From positions 130,605 to 194,604 of IMG/VR virus record IMGVR_UViG_3300043122_000207: 64,000 nt of DNA, one strand, 5' to 3'. Below the pieces are notes generated by a model. It searched no databases, was not told the origin of the DNA, and was given only the letters and a program-made list of their open reading frames with translations. Of the stretch, positions 9,187 to 61,167 are shown one piece after another; position 1 is the first letter of the stretch; each line of letters opens with the position of its first letter. The stretch is from a virus. The position numbers were made by a program, and so were the translations under genes.

Positions 9187-10014
9187 ATGAATGTTAATTT
9201 AAAAAATTTAATTACTGATTTAAATGGAAAAAGAATATTTTATCTAAGTGATGAAGATTTAGGAGAAGAAAAAATGTTGAAACCCGATAATATCGATATT
9301 GAACCACCACCTCTATTAAGGGACACAAAAAACAATATAGAGGATTTGGATATTGATGGTTTAAATAAGATACCATTTTATGAGACCATAGGTGGTGCCT
9401 TAAGATATTACGGTGAAGACTTTGATGGTGAGAAATTATATGTTTACTCACCAGTTAAAGAATTTGAAAATGTCAACATAATAGAGAATGAGGACTTAGT
9501 TAAGATTACACCAATGTTTAAATATCTTGATGAACTTTGGGTTATGGAAAATGTTAAAGTTAAATGTTTAGGTATAATAAAGATGTTTAAAAACGGGGAT
9601 GATTGGGATTGGAAATGGGTTGGTTATTCTTTAGAGATGGGTGAATTAGTAAGGGAAAATATAGATAAGAATGAACCTGAATACTTAGAGAAGATACCAA
9701 CATACATGAAAAAACTGGTTGAAAAAATGAAACTAAATAAGATACCAAAAAAAGAGATGGTTCATAAAATTTTAAATAACCCAAAACTTGATATACCAAT
9801 GACAGATACAGGAATAAAACCTGGAGACTTTGTTCCTATTGTGAAAATAAATATGTTGACTGGTAGACACTTTACGATGTATTATAAAATCAAATATATA
9901 GAATATGAATCTAAAGTGGTCGTTTATTATAAATCACCTTGGACATATGAGTATGAAGAGGATATATTTGAAACTATAAACAATGGTTACATTTATATAC
10001 GTTTATACAAATAA
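9187..10014 (+). CDS. Early protein, possible degenerate ADP-ribosyltransferase fold
   Basis: IFYLS, IPFYETIGGAL, KLYVY, DELWVMENVKVKCLG resemble the jumbo-phage ART-like pattern; canonical residues partly missing. Confidence 0.35.
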   Translation: MNVNLKNLITDLNGKRIFYLSDEDLGEEKMLKPDNIDIEPPPLLRDTKNNIEDLDIDGLNKIPFYETIGGALRYYGEDFDGEKLYVYSPVKEFENVNIIENEDLVKITPMFKYLDELWVMENVKVKCLGIIKMFKNGDDWDWKWVGYSLEMGELVRENIDKNEPEYLEKIPTYMKKLVEKMKLNKIPKKEMVHKILNNPKLDIPMTDTGIKPGDFVPIVKINMLTGRHFTMYYKIKYIEYESKVVVYYKSPWTYEYEEDIFETINNGYIYIRLYK

Positions 10015-10027
10015 GGAGTTGATTGTT

Positions 10028-12025
10028 ATGGAGTTCAGTAAAAAGATTAGAGGTATGGTTGCAAATGCTAGACAAGAACCTGAAGACAAATTAGAAGAAT
10101 ATTCTGGTAAAGGTAATACAGTTCCTTTTGCAGGGAAGGTGATGCCCAATAGGGGCATCATGCATTCAGCCGCTTTAGACCAATTTGTAGAACCAATCGA
10201 TGGTGATATACCACAATGTAATACAGTATATGCTAACGATATTTTTCGTTCTACAGAGCAACTATTTGCTAAAGATGATATGGAAATACTTCATATTATA
10301 CCAAAAGTTATTGCTGGTAAAGAGACATGTGTTAAAGCATATATTCTGAAAGATAAAGATGATAAAATTCATCTACACATTAATCCTGGTTTTAAAGAAA
10401 CAAATGAATCTTACGGTTTCAGGGTTGACTCATCATTAGATGAAAAAGAAGTGGGTGACAAATTATCTAGTGAAGACACAATAATGAGACCACATGCCTT
10501 TGATAAGAACGGCATTTATAAAGGTGGAATAAATGCAAACACAATATACATGACAGCTTGGGAAACAGTTGAAGATGCATTTTTGGCTTCAGAGAGTTTC
10601 ATGAAAAAAGCTGCCAACTATAAAGTTTTCCACTATAAAGATGAATTTGATTTAGACAATGCAGTTATTAAAAATTTATATGGGGATATGAATAATTACA
10701 AACCATTCCCTATGATTGGTGAAAAGATACAAGATAATCCAGATAATAAATATGCTAATACAGCTGGTTTCTTATTATCTTATTCCACCAATGCATCAAA
10801 TGAAACTTTTCTGCGTTCCAATGAGAATCTGATGAAGATATCACAGGACGACACATTTAAAAAATATCCTGATGGTTCTGTTATAGTGGATATAACAGTT
10901 AGACAAGCTAGAGGTCAAGAATGTAAATCTGAATTTCTAAAAGGTTTGATTGATGACAATAGGGAATTCGAATTAGAAATATATGATTTATTAAATGAAT
11001 ACAAAGATGAAGGGTACGAGTTTTCAATCGATACCGAAGACCAGTATTTAAAATACCAGTATATTTATGAGAGGATAGCACCCAATGATGAACCATACAC
11101 ATTTAGAAGAGGTAAACACGGGTATGTTCCTTCTAATAAAATTTTGATTGATATTAAAATGGTTAAAATAAATATACCATTTACTGGTCAGAAATTCACA
11201 GGACAACATGGAAACAAAGGTGTTTGTTCGGTTGTTGTCCCTGATAAGGATGGAGATCTAAGGGATATGAAATGTGCAGGAGTTTTTAAAGATGGTACAA
11301 TAAAAACAGAAGATGGTAGAAATGTTGATTTTGTTATGTCAACAGCTGGTGTGATATCTCGTGCTAACCCGGGACAGTTGGATGTTAGAACCATAAATCA
11401 AATGTCATATAAGGTGGTTAAACATTTAAAAGATAACGACGATGAATACTCTGTTGCTGATAAATTAGATATCATAATGATGTTTGTTAAAATATTTTCT
11501 GATAAGCAAGTTGAAGCTTATGAAGAATTAGTAGAAGAGTTTGGTCCGGAGCATTTTCTAGATTATATCTATGAAGAAGGTATACTTTGGAATTTAAAAC
11601 CATTCTCTCATGGTATTACTGCAAACACTTATTTTATTGCGACAGAGTTTATGGATGAGGTTGGAATTGATTATGGTGATTTTGGTAAAGACTGGGTTTT
11701 GGTTGATGGTGAAAAAAGATTTAAAGCTGAGAATGCATCCATGTATATTTATCTTTTAAAACAGGATGCTCTAAAAAATATGTCAATAAGAACCAGGGGT
11801 GCCTATAATCAAAAAGACTCACCAACGAAAACTGAAAGTAAGAAAAAGCATACAGAAAAATATAGTAGTACACCCATAAAACAATCTTCAGATGATATGT
11901 TTTTATTGATGGGTATGCTTGAACCGGAAACTGTTAAGGGGATATTTTCAACTTCTGATTCATCGATAGTGGAAACACTAGAAGCACATCTTTCAATAAT
12001 GGGTGTTGAATTATCTAAGGATTAA
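10028..12025 (+). CDS. RNA polymerase beta subunit, C-terminal half (likely non-virion RNAP)
   Basis: VPFAGKVMPNRGIM, GQKFTGQHGNKGVCS, VDFVMSTAGVISRANPGQL, SIRTRGAY match conserved beta motifs; downstream of the early motif at 9132. Confidence 0.92.
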   Translation: MEFSKKIRGMVANARQEPEDKLEEYSGKGNTVPFAGKVMPNRGIMHSAALDQFVEPIDGDIPQCNTVYANDIFRSTEQLFAKDDMEILHIIPKVIAGKETCVKAYILKDKDDKIHLHINPGFKETNESYGFRVDSSLDEKEVGDKLSSEDTIMRPHAFDKNGIYKGGINANTIYMTAWETVEDAFLASESFMKKAANYKVFHYKDEFDLDNAVIKNLYGDMNNYKPFPMIGEKIQDNPDNKYANTAGFLLSYSTNASNETFLRSNENLMKISQDDTFKKYPDGSVIVDITVRQARGQECKSEFLKGLIDDNREFELEIYDLLNEYKDEGYEFSIDTEDQYLKYQYIYERIAPNDEPYTFRRGKHGYVPSNKILIDIKMVKINIPFTGQKFTGQHGNKGVCSVVVPDKDGDLRDMKCAGVFKDGTIKTEDGRNVDFVMSTAGVISRANPGQLDVRTINQMSYKVVKHLKDNDDEYSVADKLDIIMMFVKIFSDKQVEAYEELVEEFGPEHFLDYIYEEGILWNLKPFSHGITANTYFIATEFMDEVGIDYGDFGKDWVLVDGEKRFKAENASMYIYLLKQDALKNMSIRTRGAYNQKDSPTKTESKKKHTEKYSSTPIKQSSDDMFLLMGMLEPETVKGIFSTSDSSIVETLEAHLSIMGVELSKD

Positions 12026-38744: not shown

Positions 38745-39848
38745 ATGGAAAAGGGAGATATTTTTTTTAATAGCTTAAATAGTGTGCAGTTGATATTGAA
38801 TAAGAAATGTAATTTTAATTGTAGCTATTGTTTTTCAGATAATGATGGTGAGGAAATGGATTCCGAATTACTGTTTTCTGATGTTTATAGATTTTTAAAA
38901 GAAAACTTATCGGATGATACAACTTTAAATTTTTTTGGTGGAGAACCAATGTTAGATTACCGAGAAAAGATAGACCCGTTAGTTTGTACTTTAAGGGATG
39001 ACGGGTTTGAAGGTGGTATAGGTATAGTTACAAATGGGAGTCTTTTCAACGAAAAAATAATGGATGAAATCATTGAGACAAATGTATCTGTTATGGTTAG
39101 TTTGGATGGTGATTATGAGACATTCTCTAAAAATAGAAATTCAGATCGTGAAGTTTTTGATGATATTATAAATAGTATAAAATATTTTGTTTCTAAAGAT
39201 TACCCGAATATCAGTGTTCGTTTAACATATGGCGAAGATGACATTGAGAATTTAACCAAAAATATTAAATTTATATATTCACTTGGGGTGGATGTGATTG
39301 AATTTTACCATGTTGATGAAATAAAACTCGATAAAAAATCAGCGGAAAAGTTAAAAGAAGAATTTGATAAATTGTTTTTCTTTTATGTGAAAAACGATGT
39401 TAAAATAAAATATATAGATGACTTGGTTCATTATTATTTAAATCCGGATGAGCATTCCAGAGGTAAATTACATCAGTGTGGATTGTTAAATAAAGATAAT
39501 TTTGATATGACAATCGATACTTCCGGTGATATTTTTACATGTCATCATTTTAATTCTGATGATAAAAAATATGATAGTTTTCATATCGGTAATATAAAGG
39601 AAACTTTCTATAAAGAAAAAATAAAGAATTTGAATTTGGGTCATTTAAAGAAAAAATATGTTTATGCACATAATGCAAGAGAAAATACCTGTTCAAAATG
39701 TAAATTGTATGATTTGTGTAATTCTATTTGTACTATGCAAAATATAAAGCAAAACAACAATATTTTTTTAAATTATAATGTCGATTGTTTTATAAAAAGG
39801 TCCTTCTATGATGTTATAGAATGGAGATTGAATGAGGTGAGACAATGA
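38745..39848 (+). CDS. Radical SAM/SPASM enzyme 1
   Basis: CNFNCSYC, FFGGEP, VTNG, SLDG; SPASM QCG..TC..CSKCKLYDLCNSIC..DC. Confidence 0.93.
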   Translation: MEKGDIFFNSLNSVQLILNKKCNFNCSYCFSDNDGEEMDSELLFSDVYRFLKENLSDDTTLNFFGGEPMLDYREKIDPLVCTLRDDGFEGGIGIVTNGSLFNEKIMDEIIETNVSVMVSLDGDYETFSKNRNSDREVFDDIINSIKYFVSKDYPNISVRLTYGEDDIENLTKNIKFIYSLGVDVIEFYHVDEIKLDKKSAEKLKEEFDKLFFFYVKNDVKIKYIDDLVHYYLNPDEHSRGKLHQCGLLNKDNFDMTIDTSGDIFTCHHFNSDDKKYDSFHIGNIKETFYKEKIKNLNLGHLKKKYVYAHNARENTCSKCKLYDLCNSICTMQNIKQNNNIFLNYNVDCFIKRSFYDVIEWRLNEVRQ

Positions 39849-40600
39849 CAGATAGGGATATTTTTGGTTGTTTGTATAAAGATTATATAGAAACCAATTT
39901 AAAAAATATTGTAAGTCACAGTTTATTCGATATAGAATTTGTGACTCCAGAAAAACTGGCATGTATGGTTGATCTACCAAATAAACCATATTTTTTTGAC
40001 GAGAATGGAAAGATAAAAAATGAGAATATTAATTTAGAGGGTATTGAGGGGTTAAATAAATCTAGAGATTTAGCTTTGGATATTCTAGAAAATGGTTTTT
40101 ATTATCCCTTGATTGTGCAAAAGGATGAGTTAGGGTATATTGGTGCTGAAGGGAGACACCGTTCCTTGGGTATTTTATCTTTATATAATAAGGGTGTTTG
40201 GCCCAGAGATAAAAGAATACCTGTTATAGTGTGTTATTTTGATTATCAGTCCCTCGTTAAGGGTGTAAAAGATGTTAGAAGTGGAAAAAAGGATTGTATA
40301 ATAGGGGAATACCCAATGAATGAAAGTCTTTTTTTGAATGCATCCACATTAGCAGATTTATTTTCAAAGAAAAATTATTTAATCAATTACGATAAAAAGA
40401 AACTTATTGATGATGAGTTAGGGATATTTCAATGCGAGATAAATGATCTCTATAGTTTTTTCATATTAAATGGTATTTATTATGGTGGTATAAGTAGAGA
40501 TATTTTGAAATATAAAAAAAGAGATAATCCTATTGAACCATCTCGTGTTATAAACAATATCCGTGATTTTTATTTATTTTTCAAAAATGGGAGTGGATGA
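39845..40600 (+). CDS. ParB/Srx-fold protein, paralogue 2
   Basis: LALDILENGFYYPLIV...AEGRHRSLG. Confidence 0.65.
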   Translation: MTDRDIFGCLYKDYIETNLKNIVSHSLFDIEFVTPEKLACMVDLPNKPYFFDENGKIKNENINLEGIEGLNKSRDLALDILENGFYYPLIVQKDELGYIGAEGRHRSLGILSLYNKGVWPRDKRIPVIVCYFDYQSLVKGVKDVRSGKKDCIIGEYPMNESLFLNASTLADLFSKKNYLINYDKKKLIDDELGIFQCEINDLYSFFILNGIYYGGISRDILKYKKRDNPIEPSRVINNIRDFYLFFKNGSG

Positions 40601-40601
40601 A

Positions 40602-41369
40602 ATGAAACATAGGGAAATAACCGAATACTTTTATAATGATTTTATTGATACAAATTTACGCAATTTAAACAACCACCCACAATTCAATATCGAATGGATG
40701 ACACCAGAAGAAATTATAAACAAACTGAATATACAGGGTGAAGAACATCATATGTTCGATGGTGATATGGATTATACTGATATACCTGGGGATCTTTTTC
40801 TCTATAACTCCTTTAATGATGCGAAAAAGTTGGGTTTGGATGTTCATAAAAATGGAATGTACAATCCCATTTTATTACAGAAGGTAGATGGTGTATATTC
40901 TAGATCCGAAGGAAGTCATCGTTTAAGAGGGATACTTCATCTTTATAAATCTGGTGTTTGGGATAAAAATAAGAAAATATGTTTTTTGGTGTGTGAATTT
41001 GGATACGAAAAAATGAGATTGGAAATTGTTGATATAAGAAAAAATATCAAAAAAACTTTAGATGATCCTGATATGTATAAGATGGACGATGTTTTAACTC
41101 TTAATGCACCTTTATATCATGGATGGGATAGTAGAACTAAACTCCTAGTCAAGTATGAAAGAAAAAAATTAACAAACGAAGAGCTTCAAATATACAGTTT
41201 TGATATAGAGAATTTTTATGACTTTTTTTTTATTAATGGTATTTATTATGGTGGTATAAGTAACGATTTATTTTTATACCATAATACAGATGAAATGATT
41301 CATCCTAGTCCAGTAGTTAATGATGAAAAATTTTTTAAAAAATATATGGGGGATGTTAAAGATGAGTAA
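40602..41369 (+). CDS. ParB/Srx-fold protein, paralogue 3
   Basis: LGLDVHKNGMYNPILL...SEGSHRLRG; shares NGIYYGGIS with paralogue 2. Confidence 0.65.
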   Translation: MKHREITEYFYNDFIDTNLRNLNNHPQFNIEWMTPEEIINKLNIQGEEHHMFDGDMDYTDIPGDLFLYNSFNDAKKLGLDVHKNGMYNPILLQKVDGVYSRSEGSHRLRGILHLYKSGVWDKNKKICFLVCEFGYEKMRLEIVDIRKNIKKTLDDPDMYKMDDVLTLNAPLYHGWDSRTKLLVKYERKKLTNEELQIYSFDIENFYDFFFINGIYYGGISNDLFLYHNTDEMIHPSPVVNDEKFFKKYMGDVKDE

Positions 41370-42510
41370 CATAAAGAGAGGTTTCACTTTTGATGAATAT
41401 GAAAAAAGTATTAAAAATAGATATAATGCTTCTTTAATATTTAAGATAACTAATTATTGTCCACACAATTGTAGTTATTGTTATCATAAATATAAAAATG
41501 AAGAAGATCTTGATAAAGAAATGTCTTTGGATGTTTTTAAAGAAGCACTTTATAAACTAGGGGATAGTTTCGAAGTTATAAAATTACACTTACATGGTGG
41601 TGAGCCACTTACTGTACCATATGAAAAGTTAAAGTCTATGTTGGAGATAATAGAAGAATATAGACAAAAAAGAAATAGGGGTAAATTTATAATCACTATG
41701 GCCACTAATTTATTGCTTCTTGATGAGGAAAAATTGGAAATTCTTGAAGAACACGATGTTAAGATTTCTACCAGTTATGATGGGAAATACCATAATGAAA
41801 AAAGAGCGGTTAATCTTGAGAGAGTGAAAGAAAAAATTGATATGACCCAAGGTGTTGGGATGATAGGTGTTATGACAAAAGATTGGGTTGAGGATTTGGA
41901 TGAATCAATAGATTATGTTGAAAATAGCAAAAAAGGGAAACCCTTGGTTAATCCAGTTATGGCTTTTCCTGCAGATGATGAAGATGTTCTCGATCCAGGT
42001 GATTATTCAGATTTTGTCATTCGACGTTTTGAAAAACAAATGGAGACTGGATTGTTTAGTTGGGGGACATTAAGATATCTACAAGCGGTTCTGGGTCATT
42101 CTGGCGACTGTTTTGTTTCGGGTTGTCTTAACTCAATATTTACAGTAACACCATCAGGAAATATAAAGGGTTGTGATTCCCGTAATGAAGATTATTGGTA
42201 TTATTGTAATATATCTGATATAGAATGTGTTGAAGATATTTATGAGACTGAAAAGTATAAGAATATGCAGAGGATGTATTACAATAGATTAAAAAAATGT
42301 GAAAAAGAATGTGATGTTTTTGAGTATTGTGTTGGTGGCTGTCCTAATAATTATAGGCTTAGACCGGATGGTGAATTCAGCAAAGATTACATGTGTTATG
42401 ATTATAAACAGATGATATACTATTTTCGGGATTTTTATGAAAGCTTTGGTAGTAAAGAAGAGAATCTACCCGAAAGAATTAAGGATGTTTTGATGTTAAA
42501 AAATGATTGA
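41362..42510 (+). CDS. Radical SAM/SPASM enzyme 2
   Basis: CPHNCSYC, LHGGEP, SYDG; SPASM CFVSGC..GC..CEKECDVFEYCVGGC..MC. Confidence 0.93.
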   Translation: MSNIKRGFTFDEYEKSIKNRYNASLIFKITNYCPHNCSYCYHKYKNEEDLDKEMSLDVFKEALYKLGDSFEVIKLHLHGGEPLTVPYEKLKSMLEIIEEYRQKRNRGKFIITMATNLLLLDEEKLEILEEHDVKISTSYDGKYHNEKRAVNLERVKEKIDMTQGVGMIGVMTKDWVEDLDESIDYVENSKKGKPLVNPVMAFPADDEDVLDPGDYSDFVIRRFEKQMETGLFSWGTLRYLQAVLGHSGDCFVSGCLNSIFTVTPSGNIKGCDSRNEDYWYYCNISDIECVEDIYETEKYKNMQRMYYNRLKKCEKECDVFEYCVGGCPNNYRLRPDGEFSKDYMCYDYKQMIYYFRDFYESFGSKEENLPERIKDVLMLKND

Positions 42511-43517
42511 TAAAAAGGAGATGGTGGGAAATGTTTAGTGTACCGTTTAATCAAACCGAGGAGGAAATAGAATTATATAGGGATAATGAAGATATTATAA
42601 AAGAAATTTATGCACCTATATCACCCAATTTTTTACACACTGCCCGACATATTGGGTGGTCAGAAAAAAATGATTATTTACTAGAGGAGCTTTTAAAAAC
42701 TAGTTCTGAAACATCCATAGGATTGAATCTCTTGATGAATTCTATAAATGACGATAAAATATTTATGATGAATGATTTAAAAGATATGTTAAACCAAGTG
42801 TATGAATATCAAAAACTTGGTTTAAAAAAAGTTACAGTTGCAAACCCTATTCTGTATCGGGCTATAGTGGAGAATTTACCCGGTATCGATATCGGTTTAT
42901 CTGTTATTGCTAATGCTGACACCATAGAAAAAATAAAGCAATTTTATGATTTTGGTAATCTAGTAGAATATTGTGTTCCACCAAAATTAACAAGAAACAG
43001 GGATTTTATAGAAAAGATAAAATCACTATTTGATGGTGTTAAAATTAAAATGATGGTTAATTGTTTTTGTAATCCAAACTGTGTTGGTTTTATACACCAT
43101 CACATTGAGGCTTCTAGTGGAAAAAAAGAAAAGGATACAGGGTATTTTAATTATGTTTGTAGCCAACATACAATAAACCCTCTTAAAAAGAATATAATTT
43201 TCCCCAATGAAATAGAGCATTATTCAGAGTATGTGGATGTTTTCAAAATATCAGGAAGAGAGACACATACCGAAACTATGTCGGAAATTTTGGATCTATA
43301 TAGAAATCCTAAAAAATTAAAGGAATATAATTTTCTTAAAGTTTTAGATGGATATAAAGCAAAGGGTGCTTACCTTTATGACATAAGTCCAAAGAATGGT
43401 CCAAGCAGAAACTTAGATTTAATAGAAAACTGTGACTATATGTGTATAGAAAATAAATGTGACCATTGTGGGGAAATGTTAGCTAAAAATTTTGAATTTA
43501 TGGAGGGTGAATTATAA
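42507..43517 (+). CDS. U32-family (Fe-S) protein
   Basis: EIYAP, VTVANP, LSVIAN, MMVNCFCNPNC, YVC, FKISGRE, C-terminal CDYMC..CDHC. Confidence 0.75.
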   Translation: MIKRRWWEMFSVPFNQTEEEIELYRDNEDIIKEIYAPISPNFLHTARHIGWSEKNDYLLEELLKTSSETSIGLNLLMNSINDDKIFMMNDLKDMLNQVYEYQKLGLKKVTVANPILYRAIVENLPGIDIGLSVIANADTIEKIKQFYDFGNLVEYCVPPKLTRNRDFIEKIKSLFDGVKIKMMVNCFCNPNCVGFIHHHIEASSGKKEKDTGYFNYVCSQHTINPLKKNIIFPNEIEHYSEYVDVFKISGRETHTETMSEILDLYRNPKKLKEYNFLKVLDGYKAKGAYLYDISPKNGPSRNLDLIENCDYMCIENKCDHCGEMLAKNFEFMEGEL

Positions 43518-44488
43518 TGAATATTATGTTAAATAATTATTGCAATTTAAATTGTGAATATTGTTTTGTAGAGAAACAATCAGGTCCCAATGCCAGAAAT
43601 ATAACTATGGAGAATTTTGCAAAATATATCAAATTCTTAAAAAACAATGGTATTAGAGAGGCTAAGTTGTTAGGAGGTGAACCAACACTTCATCCAAAAT
43701 TTAAAGCTATAGTTAAATATTTAAATAGTGATGATTTTTTTGAGAAAATATTGATATTTACTAATGCTCTATCTCTCAATGAAGAAATGGTTGATGAAAT
43801 AATTTCACCTAAAGTTAGTTTTTTAGTGAACTATAATAAAGAGGAAGATATAGGGAAAGAAAATTTTAAAAAAACATCTGATAATATCGATTATTTGGTT
43901 GGTGAATATAATAAACACAATAGTGGACATAGAGTCACTCTCGGTATAAACATATCTGAACCTGATTTTGATTATAAATATATAGTGGATAAGAGTCAGG
44001 AGTTGGGGTTAGATAATATAAGGTATAGTTTAACTGTGCCAACTAAAATAAATGAGGATTATGTGTCAATAAAAGAATATGAGAAATTTATACCTGGTAT
44101 CTTAGAATTTTTTAAATATGCTAATAGAAGGAATATTAGATTGAGTATCGACTGCAACAATATTCCAAAGTGTTTATTTGAAAAAGAAGAATTGTTGGAA
44201 GTGATTTTGGGTAATAACGATATGTGTGAAAGAAAATATTGCACAATGCCTCTTGATATAGATATGGATCTAAATGTCACTAGATGTTTTCCTTTTAAAA
44301 ACAGATTTGAAGTGAATTTAGAGGATTTTAATGATATGGGTGAGTTAGTAGATTATTTTGGGTCTAGAATAGACAAGTATAGGTTCAATGAACCCACATT
44401 TAAAGAATGTGTTGATTGTGAACTTTTTAAAGAAAGACTATGTCAAGGTGGATGTTTGATTTATAAATTTGGTAACAACAAACTCTAA
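43517..44488 (+). CDS. Radical SAM enzyme 3 with SPASM-like C-terminus
   Basis: CNLNCEYC, LLGGEPTLHP, FTN; C..C..RCFP..ECVDC..LCQGGC. Confidence 0.9.
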   Translation: MNIMLNNYCNLNCEYCFVEKQSGPNARNITMENFAKYIKFLKNNGIREAKLLGGEPTLHPKFKAIVKYLNSDDFFEKILIFTNALSLNEEMVDEIISPKVSFLVNYNKEEDIGKENFKKTSDNIDYLVGEYNKHNSGHRVTLGINISEPDFDYKYIVDKSQELGLDNIRYSLTVPTKINEDYVSIKEYEKFIPGILEFFKYANRRNIRLSIDCNNIPKCLFEKEELLEVILGNNDMCERKYCTMPLDIDMDLNVTRCFPFKNRFEVNLEDFNDMGELVDYFGSRIDKYRFNEPTFKECVDCELFKERLCQGGCLIYKFGNNKL

Positions 44489-44500
44489 GGGGGTTTCAAA

Positions 44501-44785
44501 ATGGAAATTAAAATTAATGGAACAGATGTAGTTAGTGATATTGAATATTGGGAAATAAGTAAAGCTAGTGAGGGAAATTTATCTACAATGATTTTGAAGG
44601 CTGAATTTTCTTCTAATTTGTTTGATTTGGTGGATACAGATACAACAGAGAATATTCTTTTTGTAGAGGATGATGAAAATAAATCGGTTAAGTTTGATAT
44701 TGACAATATTAAATTTATCGGACTAAAATCTAAAGAAGGTTCAATGCAGCAACAATTTGTAGCACATGGTGTTTTAGAGAAATAA
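44501..44785 (+). CDS. Small beta-rich hypothetical protein
   Basis: 94 aa, AAGGGG RBS, directly upstream of the W-repeat gene. Confidence 0.55.
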   Translation: MEIKINGTDVVSDIEYWEISKASEGNLSTMILKAEFSSNLFDLVDTDTTENILFVEDDENKSVKFDIDNIKFIGLKSKEGSMQQQFVAHGVLEK

Positions 44786-44803
44786 TTATTGGAGGTGGGT
44801 CTT

Positions 44804-45490
44804 GTGCCGTATAAAACTTGGTCTAACAGAACCATTTGGGGTAGATCTAATTTGGTTGGATTGATAGTTAAAAAAGATGACTTACAGGAAATAGAAGACG
44901 CGATAAAAAACCATAGAGATTTTTTAGATAACTACCCTCACAATTTCAATCAACCTAATACAAATTACCCAGTTACAAAAGAAGGTAAAATTGTATACGA
45001 TACTATAGATGACATAAAAGCCGGTATAAACTCCTTCTATTACGGAAATAACCCAAACAGTGGACTCGTTTCTGATGATAAAACAGGGGACCACATCACA
45101 GCTGAAGATATATCCTCTTTAAGGGATAGAGTCAACCATATAGAGACTAACTGTGTTGCGTGTGATACCTGTCAATTTTCTACTTGGACAGCCCGATGGT
45201 CAACTCGATGGACAACCCGATGGGACAATAATTGGGGTGCTAGTTGGACAACTAAATGGACAACCCGATGGGACAATAATTGGGGTGCTAACTGGACAAC
45301 CCGATGGGATAATAATTGGACCAATAGTTGGGGTAACAGTTGGGGTGGCAGTTGGGGTTCTAGTTGGAATAACAACTGGGGTGCCAATTGGGGTACACAC
45401 TGGAATAGTCGTTGGGGTTCTAGTTGGGGTGGAAGATGGGGTAGCCGATGGGGTAGTAGTTGGTCTAGTAAATCCTCTTACTTCTCTTAA
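44804..45490 (+). CDS. W-x-x-x repeat protein, putative radical SAM substrate
   Basis: GTG at 44804 after GGAGGTG; roughly 120-aa N-terminal domain, CVACDTC, then 24 consecutive WXXX units. Confidence 0.8.
   Translation: MPYKTWSNRTIWGRSNLVGLIVKKDDLQEIEDAIKNHRDFLDNYPHNFNQPNTNYPVTKEGKIVYDTIDDIKAGINSFYYGNNPNSGLVSDDKTGDHITAEDISSLRDRVNHIETNCVACDTCQFSTWTARWSTRWTTRWDNNWGASWTTKWTTRWDNNWGANWTTRWDNNWTNSWGNSWGGSWGSSWNNNWGANWGTHWNSRWGSSWGGRWGSRWGSSWSSKSSYFS
45185..45472 (+). repeat. 24 x 12-bp coding repeat (TGG-N9), including a 34-bp exact duplication at 45209-45242 and 45257-45290
   Basis: Read directly from the sequence. Confidence 0.95.
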
Positions 45491-45523: not shown

Positions 45524-45883
45524 ATGAATAAGAACGATACAATATATGGATTCAAAAGACCCCCCATTTTAATAGATGGGGTGTCTATTTCTGATTATTC
45601 GAAAACCAAATATGATATTTTAAATGAAGAATTTCATATTTTTTTTTATGGACTTGACGGTACCAGTAGATTGAAAGTTTTAGAGAGGATAAATTTTTTT
45701 AATGGTATCATGGATAAAGATAATGTTGGTTTCTGTTTTAAAAATAGTGATGGGGAATCAATTGGGTATTTAAAAAACCCTAAATTACTAAGATACGGTA
45801 TATCTGGTGAGACAGTGGATAGACAAAAATTGGAAGTTGTTTTTGGTGGTAAATTAATTTACAAACTTGGGGGTGACATTTAA
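45524..45883 (+). CDS. Small beta-rich hypothetical protein
   Basis: 119 aa, directly downstream of the W-repeat gene; TAATG coupling to the next gene. Confidence 0.55.
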   Translation: MNKNDTIYGFKRPPILIDGVSISDYSKTKYDILNEEFHIFFYGLDGTSRLKVLERINFFNGIMDKDNVGFCFKNSDGESIGYLKNPKLLRYGISGETVDRQKLEVVFGGKLIYKLGGDI

Positions 45884-47022
45884 TGAAAATATGTATGATA
45901 AGTGATCCCATGGCTTCTTACCCGGAAAAGTCATACCATAGTAGTTCTATTCAATTAAACCATATGGTTGATGGTCTTTTGGAATTGGGACACGATATAG
46001 ATCTGGTTATTGGGTCTGGTGAGAATATTGATAATATAGAGGGTTTAAAGATATTTGATTATCCTAACAGATATGTCGATTTAGGGGATAAGTTAAATGA
46101 TCATAGACACCAGGCAACTAACGACTTCTTTCACAATAGGGTTATTGGTGTTCTAAGGGATAATATGGGAGAGTACGATATTATACATGTACATGATACC
46201 AATTTGTTTAATAAACTGAAATTGATTGATGATTTGAATACACCTATATTGTACACTCTACATGTTAGTATTGATTACGATGATTCTAATGAAACATATA
46301 TGTCTGCACCTTATTTGCAAGATACTGTAGACAAAACAGAAGGCAATTATTTTACTGCAATGAGTAATTTCGTTAAAGATAACTCAGTTAAGAATGCCGA
46401 TAAAATATATGTTGTTTATAATGGTATAGATTTAGATATGTTCAGTTTTGAAGAAAACAAAGAGGATTTTTTTATATTTGTGGGAAGGGTATCCGATAAG
46501 AAAGGTTTTTCCTATATATTGGATGCGTTGGATCATTATGATTTCAATATTAAGATTGCTGGACCTTTAATGTATAATAATGATAGTGACAATGATACAC
46601 TTAATGTTGATGGTAGATTGAGAAATTACAATATAGAGGAGTATTTTAACAGAAGTAATGTTGAATACCTCGGTATATTAGACCACGATCGGGTTTCAGA
46701 ATATTTGTCTAAGGCTAAAGGTTTGATTCATCTTCATGAGTGGGGTGAAGGTTTTTCTATGGCTATAGCTGAATCTTTATCGTGTGGTACACCGGTTTTA
46801 TCTACTGATCGTGGTGGACCTGGTCACTATCTTTTAGATGGATATGATTCCATAGTTTTAGAGGGTGAGACATTCAAAGACCCTATAAAGGTGGTTTCTT
46901 CTCTTAAAGATTTGGAAAATATAAAACCAGAAAATTGTAGGATTTCAGCAGAAAGATTTGATAAAAATAAATTGGGAAATCAATATGAGGAAGTTTATCG
47001 AGATATTCTAGAAAATATGTAA
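45883..47022 (+). CDS. GT-B (GT4-like) glycosyltransferase
   Basis: MKICMIS, DIIHVH, VVYNGID, FVGRV..KKG, EGFSMAIAESLSCGTPV. Confidence 0.9.
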   Translation: MKICMISDPMASYPEKSYHSSSIQLNHMVDGLLELGHDIDLVIGSGENIDNIEGLKIFDYPNRYVDLGDKLNDHRHQATNDFFHNRVIGVLRDNMGEYDIIHVHDTNLFNKLKLIDDLNTPILYTLHVSIDYDDSNETYMSAPYLQDTVDKTEGNYFTAMSNFVKDNSVKNADKIYVVYNGIDLDMFSFEENKEDFFIFVGRVSDKKGFSYILDALDHYDFNIKIAGPLMYNNDSDNDTLNVDGRLRNYNIEEYFNRSNVEYLGILDHDRVSEYLSKAKGLIHLHEWGEGFSMAIAESLSCGTPVLSTDRGGPGHYLLDGYDSIVLEGETFKDPIKVVSSLKDLENIKPENCRISAERFDKNKLGNQYEEVYRDILENM

Positions 47023-47035
47023 GGGGATGGATAAT

Positions 47036-47686
47036 ATGGAAAAAGATATTGGTATTTTTATGCCTGGTAGACTGAAAAGTGAAAGGTTACCTAATAAACT
47101 ATTATTGGATATCGATGGTACCAATTTATGGGAGATAGCATGTAAAAAATTATCCAAATTACCAGATAAATATGGTAAATATGTTTTAGTTTATGACGAC
47201 AAATTAATCGATATTGCAAATGAATATGGGTTGAATGTTATAAAAAGAGATATTGGTACTACTGAGGCTGATGGTCCATTGACATATATTTATGGTGGGG
47301 TTTCAGAGATAGATAAAACCCATATTATGTTTCTTAACCCCTGTCTTTTATTTTTGACAGTCGAAACTATTGAAAATTCTATTGAGGAATTTTTAAATTC
47401 TGATGCAGACTATGCAACAAGTGTCAAAAAATTGGAGAATTGGATTTTTGATTCTGAGGGTGATAATTTAAATAAAATCAAATATAAATTTTTATCAACT
47501 AAAGATATCGACCCCCTTTATCAAGCCGCACATGCTTTCCATATTTTTAATAAAGAAAATTTTTTTAAAGATGGTTATATGTTAAAAAAGGGACATCAAT
47601 TGATTGAGATACCTGAAGATGAAACTATTGATGTTGATACAAGGGATGATTTTTTATATGCTAAATGGAGGTGGAGTCTTACTTGA
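47036..47686 (+). CDS. neuA: CMP-nonulosonate synthetase (NeuA-like cytidylyltransferase)
   Basis: PGRLKSERLPNKLL, DVDTRDDF. Confidence 0.8.
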   Translation: MEKDIGIFMPGRLKSERLPNKLLLDIDGTNLWEIACKKLSKLPDKYGKYVLVYDDKLIDIANEYGLNVIKRDIGTTEADGPLTYIYGGVSEIDKTHIMFLNPCLLFLTVETIENSIEEFLNSDADYATSVKKLENWIFDSEGDNLNKIKYKFLSTKDIDPLYQAAHAFHIFNKENFFKDGYMLKKGHQLIEIPEDETIDVDTRDDFLYAKWRWSLT

Positions 47687-47964
47687 AATATGTTATAGAT
47701 ATTGATGGTACTATATGTACACAAGAGGATGACTATGAAGATGCCAAACCTTTAAAAGAAAATATAGAACGATTTAATAAATTGTACGACGAAGGTCATA
47801 CAGTCTGGTATTTTACAGCTAGAGGTACAGAAACTGGTATAGATTGGACCGAAACCACTAAAACACAATTTGAAAAATGGGGTGTTAAATACCATGAACT
47901 TCTATTTGGTAAACCCAGTGCTGATGTATATATAGATGATAGGTGTGAGAATATAAATAAATAA
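47683..47964 (+). CDS. Short HAD phosphatase (EcbF/BcbF-like)
   Basis: IDIDGT, FTARG, GKP.ADVYIDD. Confidence 0.8.
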   Translation: MKYVIDIDGTICTQEDDYEDAKPLKENIERFNKLYDEGHTVWYFTARGTETGIDWTETTKTQFEKWGVKYHELLFGKPSADVYIDDRCENINK

Positions 47965-47986
47965 ATGGATGGGATGGGTGGTTATT

Positions 47987-48805
47987 GTGATGTTTATTGG
48001 GGAGATTGGAATAAACCATAACGGTGATCTTAGAGGTTGTAAGAGACTAATAGCATCCTGTAAGGCTTCTGGTGTGGATATTGTTAAGTTTCAGAAAAGA
48101 AATCCTGATGTATGTGTCCCAGATAATAAGAAAGATATATTAAGAGAAACCCCTTGGGGGACTATGAGATATATTGATTATAAGAAAAAGATTGAATTCG
48201 GTAAGGAAGAGTTTGACGAGATAGATAAATTTTGTAACCAAATAGGAATTGAGTGGACTTCGAGTGTCTGGGATATAGATAGTTTAGAATTCATTTTAAA
48301 TTATGATGTTCCGTTTATCAAAATACCAAGTGCTATGGTCACAAATAAAAAACTATTGAGAAAGATTAAATCTTCAGATATTCCAGTTATTATGTCAACA
48401 GGAATGAGCACAAAAAAAGAAATAAAAGATGCAGTTGATATACTGTCTGGTTGTGATTTATCAATTCTACATTGTAATAGTAGTTACCCATGTGCTGATG
48501 AGGAAATAAATTTAAAAACAATACAGACACTTAAAAAGGAATTTCCAAATCATACTATTGGTTACTCTGGACACGAGAGTGGTATATTACCCAGTGTTTA
48601 TGCTAGAGCAGCTGGTGCTGATATAATAGAAAGACATGTTACTTTGGATAGAAATATGTGGGGAACAGATCAATCCTCTAGTCTTGAACCTATTCAACTA
48701 AAAAAATTGATTAATAGGTTATGGGAGCTTGATAGGATAATGGGTGACGGTAAGATTAAAGTCTATGATTCTGAAAAAGAGATTAAAGCTAAACTTAGAA
48801 AATAA
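47987..48805 (+). CDS. neuB: N-acetylneuraminate/nonulosonate synthase (NeuB-like), no C-terminal SAF domain
   Basis: EIGINHNGD, KFQKR, KIPS, MSTGM, LHCNSSYP, GYSGHE, IERHVT, DQSSSLEP. Confidence 0.92.
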   Translation: MMFIGEIGINHNGDLRGCKRLIASCKASGVDIVKFQKRNPDVCVPDNKKDILRETPWGTMRYIDYKKKIEFGKEEFDEIDKFCNQIGIEWTSSVWDIDSLEFILNYDVPFIKIPSAMVTNKKLLRKIKSSDIPVIMSTGMSTKKEIKDAVDILSGCDLSILHCNSSYPCADEEINLKTIQTLKKEFPNHTIGYSGHESGILPSVYARAAGADIIERHVTLDRNMWGTDQSSSLEPIQLKKLINRLWELDRIMGDGKIKVYDSEKEIKAKLRK

Positions 48806-48809
48806 TTGT

Positions 48810-48840
48810 ATACCAGGGTTTATTCCCTGGTATTTTTTTT
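48810..48840 (+). terminator. Terminator closing the fibre/radical SAM/NeuB operon
   Basis: ATACCAGGG/CCCTGGTAT stem plus T run. Confidence 0.85.
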
Positions 48841-57520: not shown

Positions 57521-58945
57521 GTGAATGTTCAAATGATAGTTAGTGATAGATTGAATAATATAAAGGATGATTTAGAACAGGTCAAAAAAAAGGCCAAAGA
57601 AGATTTAGGTATAGATGTTGTCGTTGTTTTTGAAACGGGTGTTTTAAAAGAAGAGGATGAAAAGAGAGTAAGGAAATTTCTAAATGAAACATATGAGTCT
57701 TATTCACACAAACCAAGAAAGTACATCTCTATTTATCCACTCAATAGAAATGTCAGTATGTTGCTTAAAGATAGTGATTATGGTGCTCCGATGACCAATA
57801 ATGGTTTGACCCAGGTTTTACATGATATGGCTGGTGCAAATGATTACACAAGGTACGGTAGACACAGTGGTATGTGTAGGAACTTATATGAAAAGGTTAT
57901 TGTTGAGTTGGACACAAATTATGTGGATAGATTATCTAACCTCAAAAACCATGGTTCAGAAATAACTTTCCATTTAGAAAGAGATATATTGACAGCTTTA
58001 AGTGATATTAAAGATGACTATGGCGAGTTATCTCAAAAAATCCTCAATAACCTAATGGCTAATATATCCACAACTAAAGAATATATTCGAGGTAGAAACA
58101 ATGTACCCGATAATAATTATGTCGGTCAAGGTAACGAAAGTGATCTAACCAATAAAAATTACACATATTATAATAGGGATTTCTTAAAGATATTGGATCT
58201 TACAATTATGTGGTATATTAATCATAAAATTGTACAGCAAAATGTTTCCGATAAAGATATCTTTTATCACATCGATAAAATCTTAAGAATAATGGATAGG
58301 GTTCGTGGTTTTAATAAAGTTTATTATTTTAAAACTCTTTTATCTGGTGATATAGATATTAAAAAAGATTCTGTAATGGATGTTTTATTTAATAGAGTCT
58401 ATCTTGATGTCTTGGATAATAACCCTTATGAAAGAAAGAATTTAAAATATAAACCGATGTATCTTAATAGTGATAGCAAATCTATTCTACATTCTGATGG
58501 GACATCATCTGATGAAAGTTCTTTAATTTCTGAAGCATCTTTGGTTTCTTTTGATGTGGATTCAAATGATATGGTTCAGTTTATTGGTGAATGTGTGATA
58601 TTAGAAAAAGAAAACTTGATTGCTGAATCTATTTTCGATATGTTTAAAAAGTCAGATTCTAAAAAGATCATAGAATTAGCTCGTGAAGTAGATCAAATTG
58701 CAGTCGAATTTGAATTTATGTATGATCAGTATTCAAAATCTGATGCAATGCATAGGGCTTATGATTGTCTTGATAGGATTGATAAGAAAATGAATAGAGC
58801 TGACACTGATGAAATGCACGATGCTTTAGATGGTATACGTTCTAAACTTCTAGAAATCATTAAGAAAAATAGAAACAGAAATATTAAAAAACAAAGGATG
58901 ACAATAAATATTGATTATCCTAAAGGATACGGAATGAATGCGTAA
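57521..58945 (+). CDS. Hypothetical late (virion) protein
   Basis: Late motif at 57483; TAATG coupling to terminase. Confidence 0.45.
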   Translation: MNVQMIVSDRLNNIKDDLEQVKKKAKEDLGIDVVVVFETGVLKEEDEKRVRKFLNETYESYSHKPRKYISIYPLNRNVSMLLKDSDYGAPMTNNGLTQVLHDMAGANDYTRYGRHSGMCRNLYEKVIVELDTNYVDRLSNLKNHGSEITFHLERDILTALSDIKDDYGELSQKILNNLMANISTTKEYIRGRNNVPDNNYVGQGNESDLTNKNYTYYNRDFLKILDLTIMWYINHKIVQQNVSDKDIFYHIDKILRIMDRVRGFNKVYYFKTLLSGDIDIKKDSVMDVLFNRVYLDVLDNNPYERKNLKYKPMYLNSDSKSILHSDGTSSDESSLISEASLVSFDVDSNDMVQFIGECVILEKENLIAESIFDMFKKSDSKKIIELAREVDQIAVEFEFMYDQYSKSDAMHRAYDCLDRIDKKMNRADTDEMHDALDGIRSKLLEIIKKNRNRNIKKQRMTINIDYPKGYGMNA

Positions 58946-61167
58946 TGGGTATTAATATAGTATCCAGTAAAAATGAAACAGCTAATGATAAATATAAAAT
59001 AGAAGAGGAATATATACCAGAAGCAGAAGCAATAGGTGATATGTTGGGGGCTGAAGAAGAACCCGATGTAGATTACGATGAAGAAAATGATTTTTATTAT
59101 GGGCAACCTGTTATGGGTGAGGAATTCATTTATGATTTTGATACCACAAATAAAACATTTGTCGCAGTACACAATGTCTTAAAGGAATACGGTATTGAAA
59201 ACAATAAGTTCTTTTTGGTTCTTTATGATAAAGACTTAGTTGGGGTTGACCCACATGACCCTAATTTGTCTGTAGAGATGCAGCAGAAAGTAGTTAGAGA
59301 GGTTAAAAGAAACTTCTGGTATTATATACGAGAGGTAGTGATCTTACAGACAGAGGGTGGTAAGACACGCTTCATGTTACATATTGGAAACCTTGCTGCT
59401 GCTTTTTTAAAACTACAGAACTTAAACTATTACTGGGAACAGCCAAGACAGACTGGTAAGACACTTGGTGAGATGTGTTTTGAAAGTTACTTCTTTGCTT
59501 TTGGTTGTATCAATACAGAGTTTGGTTTTTATTGTTATGACAATACCAGAGCTAAAGAAAACTTACAGACTGTTATAGGTGTCCTAGAGAACCTACCAGA
59601 GTATTTAAGAATTTATAACTTAAAGAAAAAGGTAGATAAAGAAACTGGTAGGGTATCTTATAAAGATAAAGGTGAAGCTGGTAAGAAAATCAAATCACAC
59701 GAAAACGGTGTAATGAATAATAAAGCATATGCCTCAACTACTGGGCAAACAAAACAGTCAGCTGATAAAGCTGGTCGTGGTGCAACTCAGGCTAAGATGA
59801 ACTTTGATGAGTTTGGCTGGTCAAGATTCAACTATATCGTATGGGGTGCAGCTTCTTATGCACATACTACGGCAGCTAAAAACGCAGAGAGAGCTGGTAA
59901 ACCGCATGGTGTATCCTTTACATCGACACCACCAGATATGTCCTCTAAAGAGGGTGAATTCTTATTCGACTTTGTAAAGAGAAAATCAGCTAAATTTGAA
60001 ATGTTTATGTTTGATATGACACATCAAGATTTAATAGCCTGGCTTAGAGCTAATGCTAAAAAGGATTTCTTCTACCTATCTTTTCAGTATTATGAAATGG
60101 GGTATACAGAAGAATGGGCAAGAGACCAGTGGAGACAGTGTGCTACTTTAGAAGATTATAGAAGAGATGTTTTACTAGAGTGGAGAAGAGATTTATCCAG
60201 CTCTCCTTATGGTCAGGTTGCTTTAAATAAAATAGAACAGATTGTAAAAGAAGTTGAATATGAATCAATCATCTTAAATAATAAATATCACTTTAAAGTT
60301 TATCCAGGGTTTGAAATGGGTAGATATAAAAACATAGTTGTCGGTATTGATGTCGGTACAGGTATGGGTGGTAACTATGATAGTTCCACTATGGTTGGAG
60401 TAGACCCCGATACCACCGAAGTTTTATTTACATTCAAATCAAATGAAGCAGACACTTCTGTTTTCTCGGCATTGATATATGAATTTGTAACTAAATATTT
60501 AAATCAATGTGTGTTGGTAATAGAGCGTAACTCTGTTGGAAAAGCTATAATAGATAATTTAAAAGATACTGATATAAGAGAATATCTTTATTATTCTCCA
60601 TTCTCCAATAGACATGAAATTCAAGATGCCACACCAGAGGTTATGAGTAATGGTAAAAAACATTTATTTGGTATAATAAACAGAAGAAAAATCAGAAAAA
60701 GATTATTTGAGATAATGTCTACTAGGGTAAGAGAATATAAAAGACTATTTATGTCTGAGGATATATATGATGAAATGACTGACTTGGTAGAAAAGAAAGG
60801 TAAAATCAAACATAAAGATGGAGCTCATGACGATTTAGTTATTGCATATTTATTTTCACTATATGTTTTAATGCGTGATACAGAGCTTTATGAAAACTTT
60901 GGTATACCTAAACCAAACCCACCAACCGATACAGAAAATGAAGAAAGATATGATATGGATAATCTTGGGGTTGGAAAAGAAGAAGATATTAATATTTTTG
61001 TCACTGATTCCACAGGTGAAAAAGATGAAATAAAAACAATGGATGAATATCTAAAAGAAAGAGAAGAAGAAGATTTCAGACAAAGGTTAAGAGGTAATGA
61101 CGATGAATTTTCACCACCATCTGGTAGTGATGGTTTTGTAGATTTAGGTGACAGTATGTTTGATTAA
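58945..61167 (+). CDS. terL: Terminase large subunit
   Basis: EQPRQTGKT, NFDEF, FTSTP, VGIDVGTG..DSS, IERNSVG, HDDLVIA. Confidence 0.93.
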   Translation: MGINIVSSKNETANDKYKIEEEYIPEAEAIGDMLGAEEEPDVDYDEENDFYYGQPVMGEEFIYDFDTTNKTFVAVHNVLKEYGIENNKFFLVLYDKDLVGVDPHDPNLSVEMQQKVVREVKRNFWYYIREVVILQTEGGKTRFMLHIGNLAAAFLKLQNLNYYWEQPRQTGKTLGEMCFESYFFAFGCINTEFGFYCYDNTRAKENLQTVIGVLENLPEYLRIYNLKKKVDKETGRVSYKDKGEAGKKIKSHENGVMNNKAYASTTGQTKQSADKAGRGATQAKMNFDEFGWSRFNYIVWGAASYAHTTAAKNAERAGKPHGVSFTSTPPDMSSKEGEFLFDFVKRKSAKFEMFMFDMTHQDLIAWLRANAKKDFFYLSFQYYEMGYTEEWARDQWRQCATLEDYRRDVLLEWRRDLSSSPYGQVALNKIEQIVKEVEYESIILNNKYHFKVYPGFEMGRYKNIVVGIDVGTGMGGNYDSSTMVGVDPDTTEVLFTFKSNEADTSVFSALIYEFVTKYLNQCVLVIERNSVGKAIIDNLKDTDIREYLYYSPFSNRHEIQDATPEVMSNGKKHLFGIINRRKIRKRLFEIMSTRVREYKRLFMSEDIYDEMTDLVEKKGKIKHKDGAHDDLVIAYLFSLYVLMRDTELYENFGIPKPNPPTDTENEERYDMDNLGVGKEEDINIFVTDSTGEKDEIKTMDEYLKEREEEDFRQRLRGNDDEFSPPSGSDGFVDLGDSMFD

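Follow-up and report, generated by a model that had tools for sequence, protein, structure and literature searches.

A phage protein ending in 24 tandem Trp-x-x-x units, encoded beside three radical SAM enzymes: a candidate substrate for poly-cyclophane formation

Introduction

Could a phage encode a protein in order to staple it with its own enzymes? This question is raised by a gene in a 64,000-nt stretch of DNA (the window) from the IMG/VR virus record IMGVR_UViG_3300043122_000207, a 146-kb record with 31% GC. The product of the gene has 228 residues and carries Trp at every fourth position of its C-terminal part. Three radical S-adenosylmethionine (rSAM) enzymes, here called rSAM1, rSAM2 and rSAM3, and a peptidase U32-like protein are encoded upstream of it. 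Cyclophane formation by rSAMs has been described for short peptides that bacteria secrete and that bear one ring or a few. A phage protein with 24 tandem sites would here follow the same logic, served by a dedicated and conserved set of three rSAMs and the U32-like protein. We propose that this protein is the dedicated substrate of the cassette and bears an rSAM-stapled poly-cyclophane tail, a proposal that we hold with about equal confidence and doubt.

Two other readings have to be weighed. In the first, which we consider somewhat unlikely, the cassette modifies the protein, but not by a chain of cyclophanes from each Trp to the β-carbon of the residue at +3. The change could instead consist of Trp-Trp links between successive units, links that join a polar residue to the Trp after it, hydroxylation of Trp by the U32-like protein, epimerization, or thioethers confined to the C-x-x-C-x-x-C junction ahead of the array, which would leave the Trp array intact. 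In the second, which we regard as unlikely, the array stays unmodified and serves for structure or binding (for example as a β-turn spiral, a Trp-ladder solenoid, or a carbohydrate- or membrane-binding strip of a tail-associated protein), and the rSAMs act on another protein, a cofactor or DNA.

The Trp array and its gene

Translation of positions 45185-45472 on the (+) strand gives 24 uninterrupted four-residue units, and Trp is the first residue in each of them. Position +1 is occupied by G (11), T (6), D (3), S (2) and N (2), position +2 by T, N and S (6 each), A (4) and G (2), and position +3 by R (8), S (7), N (6), K (2) and H (1). The composition claimed in the original prediction is thus exact, and the translation also confirms that the first half (units 1-12) is T/D/R-rich and the last 12 units are G/S-rich. 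The array represents the C-terminal 96 residues of the open reading frame (ORF) 44789-45490 and is followed by a six-residue end; it contains no Cys. Trp makes up 11% of the repeat protein versus 0.73% of the residues in the long ORFs of the phage, and its periodicity is far beyond chance. When the 146-kb record was scanned for periodic W/C/Y/F/H arrays of at least 5 units, none was found in its other credible ORFs; the same scan gave four 5-unit Phe runs elsewhere in the record, in stop-to-stop frames. Tandem Repeats Finder (TRF) detected periods of 12, 36 and 48 nt in the repeat DNA, and the array grew as blocks of 36-48 nt were duplicated and later diverged. The ORFs in alternative frames over the repeat are by-products of its periodicity.

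The true start of the gene is probably the GTG at 44804, since GGAGG is located 8 nt ahead of it and the homologues begin with M-P-K-K there. A protein from another contig (P0001), 99% identical and also 228 aa long, has the same start. Its repeat differs from that of the window at two +1 positions only, which we counted in favor of the cyclophane proposal. The best sigma-70-like match of the region (window 44700-44729; TTGACA, 18 nt, TAAAAT; 11/12) is located inside the small gene upstream, 75 nt ahead of the repeat-protein start. In total, promoter-like sites in the region are no more numerous than in shuffles.

The repeat protein, its N-terminal domain included, had no match in Pfam, NCBIfam, PHROG or PADLOC and no sequence match in the PDB, and a PDB profile search of the protein returned spurious weak matches only. 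For the N-terminal domain, AlphaFold2 (AF2) gave low-confidence helices. The domain may act like a leader in recognition, or it may attach the protein to the virion. The AF2 monomer model, built from a 3-sequence alignment, has a mean predicted local distance difference test score (pLDDT) of 35, with 24-30 in the repeat; the helices modeled there carry no weight. That AF2 gives no confident solenoid speaks against an unmodified repeat, as far as a monomer model this uninformative can.

The repeat-protein family and the grammar of its units

The family was searched for by an exhaustive phmmer run against 1.8 billion representatives and by a profile search of a 5.8-billion-protein set. These searches yielded five true relatives only, namely P0002, P0003, P0018, P0019 and P0020. 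Using tblastn against isolated phages, we found no match for the repeat protein, rSAM2 or rSAM3, and scans of viral, metagenome and genome contigs for the repeat pattern revealed nothing further. All six members share an N-terminal domain of ~115 residues, an invariant junction and an aromatic repeat after the junction. The junction consensus of the six is C-V-[AS]-C-[DE]-[TS]-C-Q-F-S-T-W, in which the three Cys, Q-F-S-T and W are invariant; it contains a C-x3-D/E spacing, which is also invariant in the family. After it, P0002, P0018 and P0019 carry 9-10 units of W-S-[GS]-[NQD]. P0020 has thirteen 3-residue W/Y-x-D/N units, and P0003, which is cut by a contig end, has a 4-3-3 pattern (W-T-G-N, Y-x-N, W-x-N) that includes 7 units of 3 residues. 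W-S-N-R and W-G-R-S, which the original prediction had also noticed at the N-terminus, are present there but fall outside this grammar: of the two Trp, the second (W17) alone is conserved, and in P0003 the unit that it opens has Val as its last residue.

Pooled over all six members, there are 77 units, each 3 or 4 residues long, and 34 of these are distinct. Their last residue is N in 32 units, Q in 13, D in 12, R in 8, S in 7, A in 3, and K and H in one each. Gly at the last position of the homologues was the finding on which the earlier assignment of the acceptor could have foundered; it occurs at 0 of the 77 last positions. Residues with a branched β-carbon (T/V/I) do not occur there either. 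The inner positions contain 32% Gly and 13% Thr, and given this inner composition the probability of such a pattern is ~1e-9 (distinct units only). The family rule is an aromatic residue, one or two spacers, and then a residue with an unbranched β-carbon. This fits an attack on a CH2 β-carbon, and modification of some other kind leaves the rule unexplained. Gly at +1 or +2 would favor a β-turn bringing Trp and the residue at +3 together.

Because Gly is the commonest residue at +2 in the homologues, +2 is not a universal acceptor. The assignment of +3 as the acceptor fits the last-residue rule, but a four-residue rule does not extend to the family, as P0020 and P0003 have 3-residue units, and the last residue in the homologues is N, Q or D, not R, S or K. 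Close homologues differ in having units of 3 or of 4 residues, which is more in line with a local enzyme motif than with a structural period that is fixed. Such a switch could hardly be accommodated by a fixed fold, which argues against the array being an unmodified repeat.

Some homologues (L005:10001-13599; L006:1532-5198; L002:1913-3046) end in C-P-x-C-P-x-C-P(D) after the Trp array. Behind them follow additional rSAM genes, one or two in number, among which is a double rSAM of 692-699 aa. The window protein has no such motif, and the phage has no such extra rSAM genes. In this small sample of related phages, the co-variation supports the view that the enzymes read this protein; it would also suit a modification other than a cyclophane chain.

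Association of the repeat gene with radical SAM genes

Five independent contexts were compared: the window, L002/L010, L004, L005 and L006/L011. In 5/5 of them, a few kb at most separate the repeat gene from orthologues of rSAM2, rSAM3, the U32-like protein and the small protein encoded directly upstream of the repeat gene in the window. The orthologues of rSAM2 are 35-41% identical to the window enzyme, and those of rSAM3 (L002/L010, L005 and L006) ~50%. For the U32-like protein the identity is 46-49% in L002, L004 and L005, and U32-annotated genes occupy the same position in L010 and L011. The orthologue of rSAM1 is the C-terminal half of the double rSAM in L005 and L006 (42-43% identity). 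Homologues of the small protein are present in L004 and L005 (two copies in L005), in one to three copies per cassette, with weaker relatives in L006 and L002. The rSAM2 family comprises four other 90% clusters (five in all) and the orthologues from L004 and L005; two of those four clusters were looked up, and both are in the same cassette. Both families are tiny, with six repeat proteins and a similarly rare rSAM2, and they co-occur wherever the context could be read.

The conserved synteny and the co-occurrence of two such small families support an enzyme-substrate pairing. It is difficult to reconcile with an unmodified repeat that the same rSAM orthologues accompany the array in every context, and that all three rSAM/SPASM genes of this phage stand beside the gene for the sole credible periodic repeat protein of the record. 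A different modification by the same cassette would fit the synteny and the enzyme class equally well. Some support for rSAMs acting elsewhere comes from L004, L005 and L010, where the cassette directly follows a dCMP deaminase gene among genes of nucleotide metabolism. This setting looks like a DNA-modification neighborhood and not like a tail module, and phage rSAMs might serve DNA modification.

What the enzymes resemble

All three rSAMs match PF04055 above its cut-off. They contain CX3CX2C and GGEP, and near the C-terminus a Cys motif of the SPASM type, which places them in the radical SAM/SPASM superfamily; PF13186 (SPASM) matches the L005 orthologue of rSAM1. None of the three has an N-terminal extension able to hold a recognition element (RRE) of the kind found in systems for RiPPs, peptides made on the ribosome and modified after translation. 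Judging from these comparisons, they are SPASM peptide or protein maturases of no described family. Their resemblance to peptide maturases points to a peptide or protein substrate, contrary to what rSAMs acting on a cofactor or DNA would require.

The best NCBIfam matches of rSAM2 are TIGR04083 (an archaeal peptide-modifying family), DynA, AmcB, HxsB, YhhB, GrrM/OscB, FxsB, XyeB, DarW and DarE, all of them below the cut-off. Since cyclophane synthases such as DynA are among these matches, they support the cyclophane proposal. Modification of another kind is disfavored by the same fact, that the nearest named families of rSAM2 form C-C cyclophanes, and thioethers in the array by its lack of Cys. 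For rSAM1 the best matches are thioether enzymes of the PapB, anSME and SCIFF types, also of the QhpD type (PapB 134.5 bits vs. a cut-off of 340). Taken with the invariant C-x3-D/E of the junction, this would suit thioethers placed there. The PDB matches of rSAM2, which are the solved sequences nearest to these enzymes, were anSME, CteB and ChlB, a triceptide synthase.

None of the curated models was passed. With the models of enzymes that form three-residue cyclophanes (3-CyFE; XyeB, YhhB, GrrM/OscB, FxsB and AmcB), rSAM2 scored 51-74 bits and rSAM1 49-69, against cut-offs of 310-450. With the DynA model NF041298 (cut-off 450), the scores were 74.3 bits for rSAM2 and 61.3 for rSAM1. Of the models of the HXS defense system (TIGR03978/TIGR03977), HxsB gave 71.7 bits for rSAM2 versus 370, and HxsC was not among the matches listed. 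The CXXX-repeat target system TIGR04115 gave 56.5 bits for rSAM1 versus 350, and the repeat here is of Trp, not Cys. PADLOC returned generic viperin-like rSAM matches only, and Atlas neighbors with PF27846 (scores 0.85-0.87) are leads only.

The U32-like protein matches PF01136 at 29.8 bits, above the gathering score of 22.4, with partial profile coverage (residues 92-150 only, corresponding to profile positions 2-60 of 233). It has relatives annotated as peptidase U32 in T4-like phages, with 25-27% identity.

Comparison with known systems

The rSAM cyclophanes described span three to five residues, and a handful of cross-links per substrate has been reported, with five for FwwB. A literature search revealed no description of a system like this one encoded by a phage. 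Unexplained rSAM genes, 11-12 in number, are known from Campylobacter phages.

Dynobactin is the nearest in ring size. The bond from its W1 to the β-carbon of N4, on which the original prediction drew, agrees with the review literature, which gives Trp(i) C6 to Asn(i+3) C-β, a four-residue ring made by an rSAM/SPASM enzyme. Six of the window units have the form W-x-x-N (W-D-N-N three times, W-G-A-N twice and W-N-N-N once), and those of the homologues are mostly W-S-G-N and W-T-G-N. DynA is the second-best family match of rSAM2 and aligns with it over the full length; with 74 bits vs. 450, however, rSAM2 does not qualify as an orthologue of DynA. Dynobactin, an antibiotic that is secreted, has 10 residues and a single ring of this type, whereas the phage protein has 228 aa and 24 tandem units. 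Its candidate acceptors are R/S/N/K/H, and the cassette lacks an exporter and has three rSAMs and the U32-like protein.

In triceptides, the aromatic ring is joined to the C-β of residue i+2. Asn, Asp, Arg, Ser, Ala and Lys have been documented there as acceptors, which bears out the earlier statement that N, S, R and K are known cyclophane acceptors; most residue types at the last position of the family's units are among them. Triceptide precursors (of XncB, OscB/GrrM, MscB, YxdB, YhhB, HaaB, HtkB and ChlB) resemble the phage protein in the order aromatic-spacer-acceptor and in having several motifs each. The tandem W/Y-x-D/N units of P0020 and P0003 fit the motif exactly, and ChlB is among the PDB matches. 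In contrast, the window units have two spacers (i to i+3), so that the three-residue motif does not occur in them. The phage substrate is also of folded size, with a 130-aa N-terminal part, and its unit number is far above any reported in the literature compared.

Protein-sized substrates of rSAM/SPASM enzymes are known from two systems, CrpA/CrpC and HxsA, which are the precedent for a substrate of this kind. The HXS defense system consists of the His-x-Ser repeat effector HxsA, the two rSAMs HxsB and HxsC and a small partner, HxsD (PMC13128918). The phage cassette is similar to it in its protein-sized substrate, in tandem aromatic-x-x repeats, in more than one rSAM with a small partner and in the setting of phage-host conflict, and HxsB is among the top matches of rSAM2. 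It differs in that HXS is bacterial and defensive and that the small partner of the phage cassette has a tail-tube fold. Of the five repeats in HxsA, one was found to bear a +8 Da change (PMC13128918). This change is not a cyclophane, which makes HXS a precedent also for modification of another kind. In the CrpA/CrpC system of Methanococcus voltae, thioethers are formed on a protein-sized substrate by an rSAM/SPASM enzyme whose gene is adjacent. As in CrpA/CrpC and PapB-type systems, the phage would have a cross-linking rSAM/SPASM and, as its substrate, a full-size protein from a neighboring gene, with C-x3-D/E in the junction and PapB as the best model for rSAM1. The chemistry of those systems is a Cys thioether, and in this respect the Cys-free window repeat differs from them.

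Proposed product and points against it

The repeat grammar, the family, its synteny and the class of the enzymes are matters of observation. On them we base the following scheme. The N-terminal domain and the invariant Cys-rich junction would be recognized by the cassette enzymes. Each aromatic ring would then form a C-C bond with the β-carbon of the residue that closes the same unit. In this phage the rings would be of the W(i)-X(i+3) type, as in dynobactin, and in P0020 and P0003 of the aromatic(i)-D/N(i+2) type, as in triceptides. The product would contain up to 24 contiguous, non-overlapping cyclophanes. The most likely cyclase is rSAM2, and rSAM1 may form thioethers at the C-x3-D/E junction. 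An assignment of one rSAM to each acceptor class (R/K, N, S) was rejected, as homologues with N/Q/D acceptors alone keep the same three enzymes.

What we infer in this scheme is modification as such, the type of bond, the acceptor position and the roles of the enzymes. Several points weigh against it. The chemistry is not readable from homology, because the rSAM family matches are far below the curated cut-offs. Neither are the direction and topology of the links fixed by a tandem array, since the last residue of each unit also precedes the next Trp; a bond from a polar residue to the following Trp would leave the same pattern. A link from i to i+3 has a precedent only for Trp-Asn, and no His or Gln was found as a C-β acceptor in the literature compared. 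Also, 24 links are far beyond the handful reported per substrate, and three conserved rSAMs exceed the need of one cyclase reaction.

Finally, Trp-period-4 repeats also exist without nearby rSAM genes, which lends support to the unmodified repeat. One is a secreted bacterial protein in a housekeeping context, with no rSAM in the available flanks. Aromatic repeats of period 4 occur in viral fiber-like proteins, including P0014, and a giant-virus protein has aromatic units that end in Thr or Ala. The tail-tube fold of the small upstream protein and the position of the cluster after a tail-fiber-like gene in the window would also be in line with a structural role.

We also consider a wider form of the cyclophane proposal, which seems to us quite improbable. 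The last 96 residues would belong to a tail-associated protein and become an unbroken, protease-proof rod of 24 cyclophanes in an anaerobic host, covalently stapled by the antibiotic-type chemistry of dynobactin and triceptides. The virion would use it, for example, as a rigid strand to engage the host envelope. The protein would then represent the Trp type within a broader, as yet undescribed class of phage rSAM cassettes that mature aromatic-repeat virion proteins.

If the cyclophane proposal is true, the protein would be the most densely cross-linked ribosomal product known, and the rare four-residue ring of W-x-x-N would extend to Arg, Ser, Lys and His as acceptors. It would also mean that viruses apply RiPP-type chemistry to their own proteins. 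The family is a natural experiment on ring size, with close homologues that have the same enzymes and 3- or 4-residue units, and it supplies compact enzyme-substrate sets for the engineering of stapled peptides.

The cassette, its neighborhood and the host

The features of the cassette are collected in Table 1. Upstream of the repeat gene, on the same strand, the order is a tail-fiber-like gene, the paralogues with rSAM1, rSAM2, the U32-like protein, rSAM3 and the 94-aa protein.

Table 1. Location of the repeat gene, its parts and the cassette genes in the window
Feature	Position	Strand	Remarks
Trp-repeat protein gene	44804..45490	+	228 aa from GTG 44804; mechanical ORF from TTG 44789
N-terminal domain, ~115 aa	44804..45151	+	37-45% identity among homologues; from alignments
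Junction C-V-A-C-D-T-C-Q-F-S-T	45152..45184	+	invariant columns C122, C125, C128, Q129-W133
24 tandem W-x-x-x units, proposed cross-linking core	45185..45472	+	from translation, unit grammar and TRF
Small 94-aa protein	44501..44785	+	directly upstream of repeat gene; predicted all-β, tail-tube/Hcp-like fold
rSAM3, radical SAM/SPASM-type	43517..44488	+	PF04055; CX3CX2C at residue 9, GGEP, C-terminal CX2CX7CX3C
U32-like protein	42507..43517	+	nine Cys, including C-terminal CX3CX4CX2C group; PF01136
rSAM2, radical SAM/SPASM	41320..42510	+	best candidate cyclophane synthase
rSAM1, radical SAM/SPASM	38745..39848	+	exact CX2CX5CX3C; closest to thioether-forming maturases
Three paralogues, 236-268 aa	38022-38732, 39845-40600, 40563-41369	+	interleaved with rSAM1

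The AF2 model of the 94-aa protein has a pLDDT of 83 and is all-β. Its VIA-align matches were, with few exceptions, chains of tail tube, terminator, Dit and Hcp proteins (Z 9.8-6.2; root-mean-square deviation 2.6-3.3; 86-94 residues aligned for nearly all rows, best 93/94), and Foldseek agrees weakly. A classical RRE (a PqqD-like winged helix of three helices and three strands) is not supported for this protein, as the model is all-β and tail-tube-like; no RRE is among its structural matches, although a missing match does not exclude one. The protein may serve as carrier or partner in the manner of HxsD and Hcp, or it may be part of the tail.

The three paralogues cluster together and have in common an E-G-x-H-R core and an N-G-I-Y-Y-G-G-I-S motif. 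They gave no Pfam match, and a ParB fold found no support there. We rejected them as core components of the cassette, since searching the other loci with a profile of the three revealed no orthologue, and regard them as accessory genes of this phage only.

The cluster in the window lies between the fiber gene and a glycosyltransferase/NeuB module. The latter (45883-48805, same strand) encodes a GT4-type glycosyltransferase, a cytidylyltransferase, a 99-aa protein and a NeuB-family synthase, and the first strong terminator after the cluster is at 48810-48833. The module is outside the conserved core, because it is absent from the homologous cassettes. The surroundings of L004, L005 and L010 include thymidylate kinase/synthase-like genes and a gene of the uracil-DNA glycosylase (UDG) family, and L010 has a DNA glucosyltransferase of the AGT family. 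L004 (GCA_048623315.1, which holds P0003) is labeled an archaeal metagenome-assembled genome; its UDG, dCMP deaminase and rSAM cassette look like a misbinned phage contig. Periodic repeats were also looked for in the loci of other phage rSAM relatives, those of Phass-1 and a fecal contig, and none was found.

At 58945-61167 and 9983-12025, the window also encodes the large terminase and an RNA polymerase beta-like subunit. By its large terminase the phage is nearest, among isolates, to the Fusobacterium nucleatum phages JD-Fnp (~175-180 kb), with 38-40% identity. It belongs to a lineage of large phages whose hosts are probably low-GC anaerobes, and an anaerobic host would fit oxygen-sensitive enzymes.

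A similar grammar was seen in another phage protein, P0014 (L008:2891-5824). This tail-fiber-like protein of 977 aa has 42 consecutive aromatic-x-x-x units (F30 W6 Y3 H3), and its contig ends just past the gene. The last residues of its units are R11 A11 K5 S4 Q4 D3 E2 N1 L1, with no Gly, Thr, Val or Ile despite 19 Thr inside the units. Thus, the grammar of the window repeat also occurs on a recognizable fiber.

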